From Candidatus Bathyarchaeia archaeon (GTDB lineage Archaea > Thermoproteota > Bathyarchaeia > 40CM-2-53-6), in the NCBI GenBank assembly GCA_050013255.1, contig JBEKFP010000001.1:1088001-1152000 (forward strand): 64,000 nt of DNA. The letters are read 5' to 3'. Positions 37,301 through 63,613 of the stretch are shown here, in pieces. The notes beneath the pieces were generated by a model that saw nothing but the letters and a program-made list of their open reading frames with translations, was not told where the DNA came from and ran no database searches. Made by a program: the position numbers and the translations under genes. How positions within the stretch are numbered: position 1 is the stretch's first letter; the number at the start of each line of letters is the position of its first letter.

Positions 37301-37408
37301 TGGTGGACCGGGCGGGATTTGAACCCGCGACCTCCCGCATGCCAAGCGGACGATGTGGTCGCATCGTGTTGATTCATCGATGCTCATACCAGGCTGATCT
37401 ACCGGCCC
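37301..37408 (-). tRNA. tRNA-Ala(GGC) with one 30-nt intron at 22/23 (37355-37384); CCA encoded
   Basis: Spliced cloverleaf GGGCCGG TA GATC AGCCTGGTAT GATC G TCCGC TT GGC AT GCGGG AGGTC GCGGG TTCAAAT CCCGC CCGGTCC A CCA; G3-U70; BHB-like GGTA/TGA/GCATCG..CGATGC/GACC/ACA. Confidence 0.93.
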
Positions 37409-37719: not shown

Positions 37720-37764
37720 CTTAAGTTGTTGAGCGGAAAGCTGTCTTGCTCGGTGCCGGGGAAC
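37720..37764 (+). promoter_or_regulatory. tRNA-Phe TATA box (CTTAAGT) and 5' leader
   Basis: Purine-rich BRE-like run, then TTAAG at 37721-37725; standard spacing puts the start near 37750. Confidence 0.55.
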
Positions 37765-37902
37765 GCCGAGGTAGGACAGATTCCCTCGAAAGCTCAGCCT
37801 GGGAGAGCACCCGAACAAATCGTGGTGAAGCTGAAGACCGGGTTGACTACGCTACATAAAGCGTAGGCCAAATCGCGGATTCAAATCCCGCCCTCGGCAC
37901 CA
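37765..37902 (+). tRNA. tRNA-Phe(GAA) with three introns: 8/9 (37773-37790), 30/31 (37814-37829), 46/47 (37846-37872)
   Basis: Spliced 77-nt GCCGAGG TA GCTC AGCCTGGGA GAGC A CCCGG CT GAA GA CCGGG TTGTC GCGGA TTCAAAT CCCGC CCTCGGC A CCA; central helices CGAG/CTCG, CACC/GGTG and a relaxed GGGT/GCCA. Confidence 0.9.
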
Positions 37903-44370: not shown

Positions 44371-44501
44371 GCGGCCGTAGTCTAGCCTGGTCTAGGACGG
44401 GAACAGCAACGGAAGTTTGCTGACGCAAGCCTGCCACGCTTCTGATCGCCCCTTAGTAAGGGCGAGAAGACGCCCGGGTTCAAATCCCGGCGGCCGCACC
44501 A
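44371..44501 (+). tRNA. tRNA-Gly(GCC) with two introns: ~29/30 (44403-44428) and 45/46 (44445-44471)
   Basis: Spliced GCGGCCG TA GTCT AGCCTGGTCTA GGAC G GGAGC CT GCC AC GCTTC TGGC CCGGG TTCAAAT CCCGG CGGCCGC A CCA; intron 2 has a perfect CTTC/GAAG BHB; intron 1 is relaxed (boundary +/-1 nt); TTTTATA at 44335-44341. Confidence 0.92.
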
Positions 44502-63490: not shown

Positions 63491-63613
63491 GGGCTCGTAG
63501 CTCAGTCTGGATAGTGCTTGCAGGTTGAGCATCTAAAGCACAGGCCCTCTAAACGCTTTGTAAAAAGCGGGGGACGCCTGGGGTCCGGGGTTCGAATCCC
63601 CGCGGGCCCGCCA
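63491..63613 (+). tRNA. tRNA-Arg(TCT) with two introns: 22/23 (63515-63536) and 38/39 (63553-63575)
   Basis: Spliced GGGCTCG TA GCTC AGTCTGGATA GAGC A CAGGC CC TCT AA GCCTG GGGTC CGGGG TTCGAAT CCCCG CGGGCCC G CCA; Arg identity elements A20 and G73; central helices GGAT/ATCT and CTCT/GGGG. Confidence 0.88.

Follow-up and report, generated by a model that had tools for sequence, protein, structure and literature searches.

Introns that enzymes splice out of tRNAs are considered tolerable where the splice motif can arise and leave the precursor otherwise intact. An intron directly after tRNA base 8 is difficult in this respect: the motif uses up the acceptor strand, and no more than eight bases make up the 5′ exon. 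How, then, could such an intron be removed? The question is raised by a tRNA-Phe gene of an uncultured Bathyarchaeia archaeon from soil, which lies in the window analyzed here, a stretch of 64,000 nucleotides (contig JBEKFP010000001.1, positions 1,088,001 to 1,152,000). The initial annotation, made from the letters of the window, placed in this gene an 18-nt intron at position 8/9, whose bulge-helix-bulge (BHB) motif is built from the 5′ acceptor strand.

Results

A tRNA-Phe gene with three introns

The tRNA-Phe(GAA) gene occupies 37765-37902 on the forward strand (138 nt) and is interrupted by three introns, at positions 8/9, 30/31 and 46/47. When 37773-37790, 37814-37829 and 37846-37872 were excised in silico, the remaining 77 nt were called tRNA-Phe(gaa) with an encoded CCA by ARAGORN, in agreement with the identity given in the initial annotation. 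Neither ARAGORN nor the Rfam tRNA model reported a tRNA at the locus of the unspliced gene. The tRNA-Phe became visible only once the introns had been spliced out in silico. All four exons lie on the forward strand. [quoted passage not shown] Exon 3 (37830-37845) provides bases 31-46, with the anticodon GAA at 37833-37835, and exon 4 (37873-37902) provides bases 47-76, including the T arm. Exon 4 also contains the 3′ acceptor strand CCTCGGC (37892-37898) and ends with the discriminator A (37899) and the encoded CCA (37900-37902).

Intron 2 (37814-37829, 16 nt, position 30/31) forms a strict BHB with the central helix CACC/GGTG, the bulges CG-A and AA-G (here and below the hyphen marks the predicted cut), and outer and inner helices of 2 bp each. 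Most orthologues carry an intron at this site, with varied sequence. Intron 3 (37846-37872, 27 nt, position 46/47) forms a relaxed BHB with three of the four central pairs (the fourth is a G-A mismatch), a 7-bp inner helix and no proper outer helix. Its boundaries are fixed because relatives that lack it read YTG[T/C]C in the variable loop. The orthologue of one relative (CAZRDM010000009.1) has five introns of 18, 25, 20, 24 and 26 nt, at 8/9, in the D loop, at 30/31, at 46/47 and in the T loop, in a gene of 190 nt; after their excision, ARAGORN called a 77-nt tRNA-Phe.

Other kinds of gene were considered and rejected. A split or circularly permuted tRNA gene does not fit, as the four exons follow one another in order on a single strand, all within 138 nt. 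Self-splicing group I or group II introns do not fit sizes of only 18, 16 and 27 nt, and no Rfam intron family matched in the region.

The assembly is a metagenome bin of 2.46 Mb in three contigs, rated 100% complete with 8.55% estimated contamination. The initial annotation had named an intact tRNA-Phe gene elsewhere in the genome, combined with an absence of spliced junction reads, as a finding that would speak against the intron; neither BLAST with the spliced sequence nor a scan for GAA anticodon stem-loops revealed another tRNA-Phe anywhere in the assembly. The locus could nevertheless be a decaying pseudogene, or carry an insertion that is never spliced, with a functional tRNA-Phe in unassembled DNA. 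Such a reading would suit both the estimated contamination of the bin and a mismatch in the T stem, A53:C61 (37879, 37887), at the loop-closing pair that is normally G-C. However, the architecture including this mismatch is kept in many species of the genus, the cloverleaf, anticodon and CCA are intact, the BHB pairs are all maintained while the intron loop drifts, and the assembly in which no other tRNA-Phe was found is rated complete. We consider the pseudogene reading extremely unlikely. With moderate confidence, which extends jointly to the whole explanation developed below, we regard the locus as the working, single-copy tRNA-Phe(GAA) gene of this archaeon, with a precursor of about 150 nt and three protein-spliced introns. 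The mismatch itself is conserved across the species of the genus (GCGGA...CCCGC), whereas other families have the normal pair.

Three further intron-bearing tRNA genes were noted in the window. The divergent neighbor of tRNA-Phe is a tRNA-Ala(GGC) gene (37304-37408, reverse strand) with a G3:U70 pair, the anticodon loop TTGGCAT and an intron of about 30 nt near 22/23, which ARAGORN miscalled as tRNA-SeC. This neighborhood is kept in relatives, where T-arm matches lie beside each tRNA-Phe. At 44371-44501 (forward strand, 131 nt) ARAGORN called a Gln(CTG) gene, which scored 40.7 bits in a genome-wide Infernal search and was absent from the search of the window at the gathering threshold. At 63491-63613 (forward strand, 123 nt) it called a Val(GAC) gene.

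The intron at position 8/9 and its splice motif

Intron 1 (37773-37790, forward strand, 18 nt) forms a strict hBHBh′ motif at position 8/9. A base-by-base check gave an outer helix GC/GC of 2 bp (G37765-C37793, C37766-G37792) and a central helix CGAG/CTCG of four Watson-Crick pairs (C37767-G37788, G37768-C37787, A37769-T37786, G37770-C37785). The bulges are GT-A (37771-37773) and AA-A (37789-37791), and the inner helix GGA/TCC of 3 bp (G37774-C37784, G37775-C37783, A37776-T37782) closes a loop of 5 nt. The motif therefore has the 4-bp central helix, the two opposed 3-nt bulges and the flanking helices of at least 2 bp expected of a BHB, and every pair that the initial annotation listed at 37765-37793 is present. 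When the 18 intron bases were shuffled, 81 of 200,000 shuffles gave a 4-bp central helix together with at least two inner pairs at the same boundaries. A cut after the second base of each bulge removes 37773-37790 and leaves GCCGAGGT-AGCTC.

The tRNA bases 1-2 lie in the outer helix and bases 3-6 in the central helix, and the next two, G7 and U8, belong to the 5′ bulge. Because the motif needs bases 1-6, the BHB and the acceptor stem compete. The pairs listed above, which also take G10-C11, and the folding calculations described below bear out the statement of the initial annotation that the two structures are incompatible.

Positions 37773 and 37791 are both A, and in the sequence of this gene the registers 8/9 and 9/10 are equivalent. 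In three distinct orthologue sequences, which come from five genomes of a neighboring genus, the intron begins with T and its removal still restores A9; further, no BHB fits the 9/10 register. The 9/10 register was therefore rejected, and 8/9 is the correct one.

Conservation of the 8/9 intron

The initial annotation had pointed to related genomes as the place to look for further 8/9 introns. A search of 40 relatives and of additional regions retrieved from these, together with a scan across the genomes of 185,579 species, gave 38 distinct tRNA-Phe loci, of which 18, from five Bathyarchaeia families, carry the 8/9 intron and 20 do not. At this junction the 20 intron-less orthologues have GCCGAGGT-AGCTC, identical to the ligation product predicted here; thus, the claim that cutting at the bulges restores the exact tRNA junction was borne out by genes that never need the cut at this site. 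Across the 18 intron-bearing orthologues the intron is 17-27 nt long, and its loop varies while the pairs are kept. In an alignment of 17 distinct orthologue sequences, 96.1% of pair cells were standard pairs, compared with 24-49% after the partners had been slid by one to three columns. The third inner pair exchanges among AU, CG and GC between lineages; in two of the aligned sequences, G-U replaces one of the central pairs. Covariation is confined to one inner pair and is thin because most bases of the motif are exon bases fixed by tRNA function. In this comparison of genomes, the exact junction in genes with and without the intron is a stronger argument than covariation. On that comparative evidence, the 8/9 insertion is a real, maintained intron and not a chance fold.

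The scan of the 185,579 species gave 18 real matches, 17 from genomes labeled Bathyarchaeia, Bathyarchaeota or simply archaeon and one labeled Crenarchaeota; eight pattern matches in bacterial bins were dismissed as chance, with no tRNA downstream. In an even, class-wide sample, the pattern occurred in 20 of 401 genomes, all belonging to five families of the order of the source genome, and was found in none of the approximately 296 genomes of other orders in that sample. Most public records in which this intron occurs carry the label Bathyarchaeia or Bathyarchaeota and are bins recovered from soil, peat and sediment.

A copy of the 5′ acceptor strand in the leader

Immediately upstream of the gene, on the same strand, lies a second version of its 5′ acceptor strand. 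This leader copy, GGTGCCGGGG (37752-37761), consists of GGT (37752-37754) followed by GCCGGGG (37755-37761), and is separated from tRNA base 1 by the spacer AAC (37762-37764). It is complementary to CCTCGGCACC at 37892-37901, that is, to the 3′ acceptor strand plus A73-C74-C75, with which it can form 10 pairs, one of them G-U. The conflict between motif and acceptor stem described in the initial annotation stands; what had been overlooked there is the leader copy, which is likely the answer to the conflict.

All 18 intron-bearing orthologues have such a copy, 1-7 nt upstream of +1. The copies keep 6-7 of the 7 bases, and GGT, which pairs with ACC, is often added. Among the orthologues without the intron, about 11 of 20 have a copy (hypergeometric probability approximately 0.001, uncorrected for relatedness). 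The presence of the copy in half of the intron-less orthologues suggests either that the intron was lost and the copy lingers as a slowly decaying relic, or that the copy has a further role. In five relatives with neither intron nor copy, GGT lies directly before +1 and is complementary to A73-C74-C75. Within the order of these relatives, ordinary precursors with GGT before +1 could stretch the acceptor helix to ten pairs.

A TATA-like box, CTTAAGTT (37720-37727, forward strand), is preceded by a purine-rich stretch, and its first base lies 45 nt before tRNA base 1. In each of the 18 genes with the 8/9 intron the box begins between -39 and -47, and in most orthologues that lack a copy it begins between -33 and -38; where the leader copy exists, the box is displaced upstream by about 8-10 nt. 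Because the box sits further upstream, the copy is presumably transcribed. From the usual archaeal spacing between TATA box and start site, this predicted promoter would start transcription near -13, at or just before the copy.

The arrangement can also be read in the opposite sense, with the upstream copy as the true 5′ end of the tRNA and the 8-12 nt between the two copies as a micro-intron whose removal regenerates GCCGAGGT. Any cut within the shared prefix would indeed regenerate the identical mature 5′ end. However, at the regenerating cuts no central helix or register is conserved, the best helix having only two or three of four pairs in 17 of 18 orthologues, and the repeat period of 8-12 nt is at or below the size that a BHB can span. 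Further, position 5 is G in the upstream copy of this gene but A in every copy-less orthologue. We therefore rejected the hidden micro-intron as very unlikely.

Effect of the leader on precursor folding

Folding energies were calculated with nearest-neighbor parameters at 37°C, ignoring tertiary structure and proteins, and are given as the fold forced to contain the BHB minus the fold forced to contain the acceptor stem. Without the leader, the BHB fold was worse by 7 to 14 kcal/mol in all 18 genes; the 138-nt gene alone folded into the acceptor stem and the BHB was absent, a result that, taken alone, would argue against the BHB reading. With a 14-nt leader, the difference became -10.1 kcal/mol in this gene and -10 to +2 kcal/mol across the 18 orthologues. 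In the minimum free energy structure of this precursor the leader copy pairs with the 3′ end, and in 12 of the 18 orthologues the minimum free energy structure contained the BHB central helix, with 7-11 leader bases paired with the 3′ end.

The effect depended on the sequence of the leader. For one hundred shuffled leaders the mean was +2.8 kcal/mol and the lowest value -4.6 kcal/mol (native, -10.1 kcal/mol), and eight leaders grafted from copy-less orthologues gave +6 to +12 kcal/mol. The sign of the leader effect in this gene was stable from 25 to 70°C. Thus, in these calculations, the leader shifts the splice-competent fold from disfavored by 7-14 kcal/mol to favored or neutral.

Even after splicing in silico, the helix between leader and 3′ end surpassed the true acceptor stem by about 12 kcal/mol, in a calculation that ignores tertiary structure and in which the forced fold is no proper cloverleaf. 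This preference weighs against the hand-over to RNase P proposed below.

Leader copies in other tRNA genes of the genome

Nearly all tRNA genes of the source genome are intron-bearing. In a census of 31 tRNA genes, recognized by a T-arm/CCA anchor, five had 8/9 introns (Phe, Asn, Cys, Leu-CAG and Leu-GAG). Four of these five have a leader copy with at least six Watson-Crick matches (Phe, GCCGGGG; Asn, GCCGCCG; Cys, GCCGGGG; Leu-CAG, GCGGGGT), and each copy corresponds to the acceptor strand of its own gene. Among the other tRNA genes, one of 26 has a copy, with a 6-of-7 match (Fisher's exact test against four of five, approximately 8e-4).

The exception is tRNA-Leu(GAG) (G000:C1:1244030-1244171, forward strand), which has a strict 8/9 BHB and no leader copy. 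Its leader sequence GGCCUGG instead extends the outer helix of the BHB by pairing with the D-arm exon, and the calculated balance is +11.4 kcal/mol before and -1.9 kcal/mol after this extension. Because this leader favors the splice fold without a copy, the general rule may be that leaders stabilize the splice fold, the spare strand being the commonest route.

These counts bear on the possibility that the leader copy plays no part in splicing. The 8/9 intron would still be spliced by the endonuclease EndA, and the copy would be a relic, for example of the origin of the intron or of a duplication of the 5′ end; the local BHB hairpin would form first and be cleaved while the 3′ strand is still to be transcribed. 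As a local structure, the 18-nt intron hairpin would fold ahead of a strand that lies about 120 nt downstream. The copies retained by about 11 of the 20 intron-less orthologues and the copy-less 8/9 motif of tRNA-Leu(GAG) point in the same direction. On the other hand, a neutral copy should decay, yet 6-7 of the 7 bases are kept and GGT is often added, in all 18 intron-bearing orthologues of five families. Further, four non-homologous tRNA genes have copies that match their own acceptor strands, and the promoter box is displaced far enough upstream to include the copy. We consider a relic unlikely, although it is the alternative to which we give the most weight.

Alternatively, the copy might act as a general maturation lock with no special tie to 8/9 introns, covering the 3′ acceptor strand and CCA of unfinished precursors and thereby excluding RNase P, the CCA-adding and aminoacylation enzymes, or 3′ exonucleases. 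That the leader helix remains the most stable pairing after all introns have been removed in silico is consistent with such a lock, as is the persistence of the copy in orthologues that lack the 8/9 intron and have the 30/31 and 46/47 introns. However, nearly all tRNA genes of this one genome have introns, yet good copies are found in four of five genes with an 8/9 intron and in one of 26 others. Further, a helix that outcompetes the acceptor stem demands a release step, and none is evident. A general lock is therefore improbable.

Processing enzymes

Two EndA paralogues are encoded in the genome, at G000:C2:171513-172082 and G000:C1:301907-302467; they are 190 and 187 amino acids long and both have the N-terminal and catalytic domains (PF01974 and PF02778). 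The two are diverged, with 33% identity over 78 residues. Non-canonical introns are cut only by two-subunit and epsilon-type endonucleases, according to the available part of one article (PMC5829648). From their sequences, the two paralogues fit the two-subunit type, probably assembling as a heterotetramer.

The genome also encodes RNase P RNA and one RtcB. The RtcB lies in an open frame of 1039 amino acids (G000:C1:110968-113778, reverse strand), and its Pfam match falls into two parts (positions 1-60 and 49-426) that lie about 1.4 kb from each other, as would be expected if an intein interrupted the gene.

Discussion

How could an intron that borrows the acceptor strand be removed from a precursor that also needs the strand? 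The explanation that we favor, and regard as fairly probable, is that this tRNA-Phe precursor has three introns spliced by EndA and RtcB, and that the leader copy parks and tethers the 3′ end during splicing. The data suggest that the precursor brings its own remedy in the form of a spare strand encoded in the leader.

The events could take the following course. During transcription, tRNA bases 1-11 and the intron would form the local BHB hairpin. Once made, the 3′ strand and ACC would pair with the free leader copy rather than invade the BHB, and the leader helix would prevent the 3′ strand from drawing bases 1-7 away from the splice motif. EndA, probably as a heterotetramer, would then cut both bulges. 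The resulting 5′ exon would consist of about 13 leader bases and eight tRNA bases, and only two outer pairs would otherwise hold it; the leader helix would tie this short exon to the body of the tRNA from cleavage to ligation, when RtcB would join the exons. After splicing, the true 5′ strand would displace the copy, and RNase P would cut at +1 and remove the leader.

We put at about even the chance that the spare acceptor strand, encoded in the leader at the beginning of the transcript, evolved in Bathyarchaeia as a cis-acting helper dedicated to introns near the tRNA 5′ end. The helper is a more interesting part of this locus than the position of the intron. If the proposal is correct, the spare strand is a new functional element of tRNA genes and of pre-tRNA architecture. 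It would explain how intron positions regarded as near-forbidden could be colonized several times within one genome (Phe, Asn, Cys and Leu), and why gene finders miss many tRNAs of Bathyarchaeia. It would also offer a simple in vitro system for RNA folding pathways, with one RNA, two enzymes and one 10-nt element. For annotation, the result means that the source genome does possess a tRNA-Phe.

The positions of archaeal tRNA introns listed in reviews are 20/21, 22/23, 25/26, 29/30, 30/31, 45/46, 53/54, 56/57, 59/60 and 3/4 (PMC4090602, PMC3978253), and the acceptor stem is among the intron sites (PMC3978253). One review presents the intron at 3/4 in Thermoproteales as the extreme case (PMC4090602, citing Sugahara et al. 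2008). With the 3/4 intron already published, the use of the acceptor strand by a splice motif has a precedent. The initial annotation named no example at 8/9. The absence of 8/9 from the position lists of the reviews agrees with this; the agreement is partial, as those lists stand in for the primary position catalogues. In the reviews and other texts searched, we found neither a listing of 8/9 nor a leader helper. Judged from the genomes compared here and from these lists, the intron is real and 8/9 is a rarely or never documented position.

The introns of Thermoproteales resemble those described here in several respects. They are short, protein-spliced and located outside 37/38, with up to three per gene and a two-subunit EndA; their strict or relaxed BHB motifs are partly made of exon bases, and the precursor cannot take the mature fold. 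In contrast, the present intron belongs to Bathyarchaeia and lies at 8/9, and no acceptor-substituting leader appears in the texts that describe the Thermoproteales introns.

In Asgard archaea, according to the available part of a 2026 preprint, most tRNA genes are likewise intron-bearing, often with several introns and with up to five, more than in Thermoproteales and a stated maximum that the five-intron gene of CAZRDM010000009.1 matches. The Asgard introns frequently lie at non-canonical sites missed by tRNAscan-SE. Asgard archaea are a different phylum, however, and that part of the preprint mentions no leader helper; in its table for one Atabeyarchaeia genome, the earliest annotated intron begins 15-17 nt into the gene.

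The closest parallel to the helper is found in the split tRNAs of Nanoarchaeum equitans and Crenarchaeota, in which extra complementary sequence holds the pieces together for the BHB (PMC4090602, PMC4033280, PMC3218864). By analogy, the proposed tether formed by the leader copy would be the cis equivalent of that arrangement. Unlike in split tRNAs, the gene described here is contiguous, and the helper pairs with the mature 3′ acceptor strand rather than with a dedicated trailer. Further, it would need to be displaced afterwards, whereas the complementary sequence of split tRNAs is removed together with the BHB.
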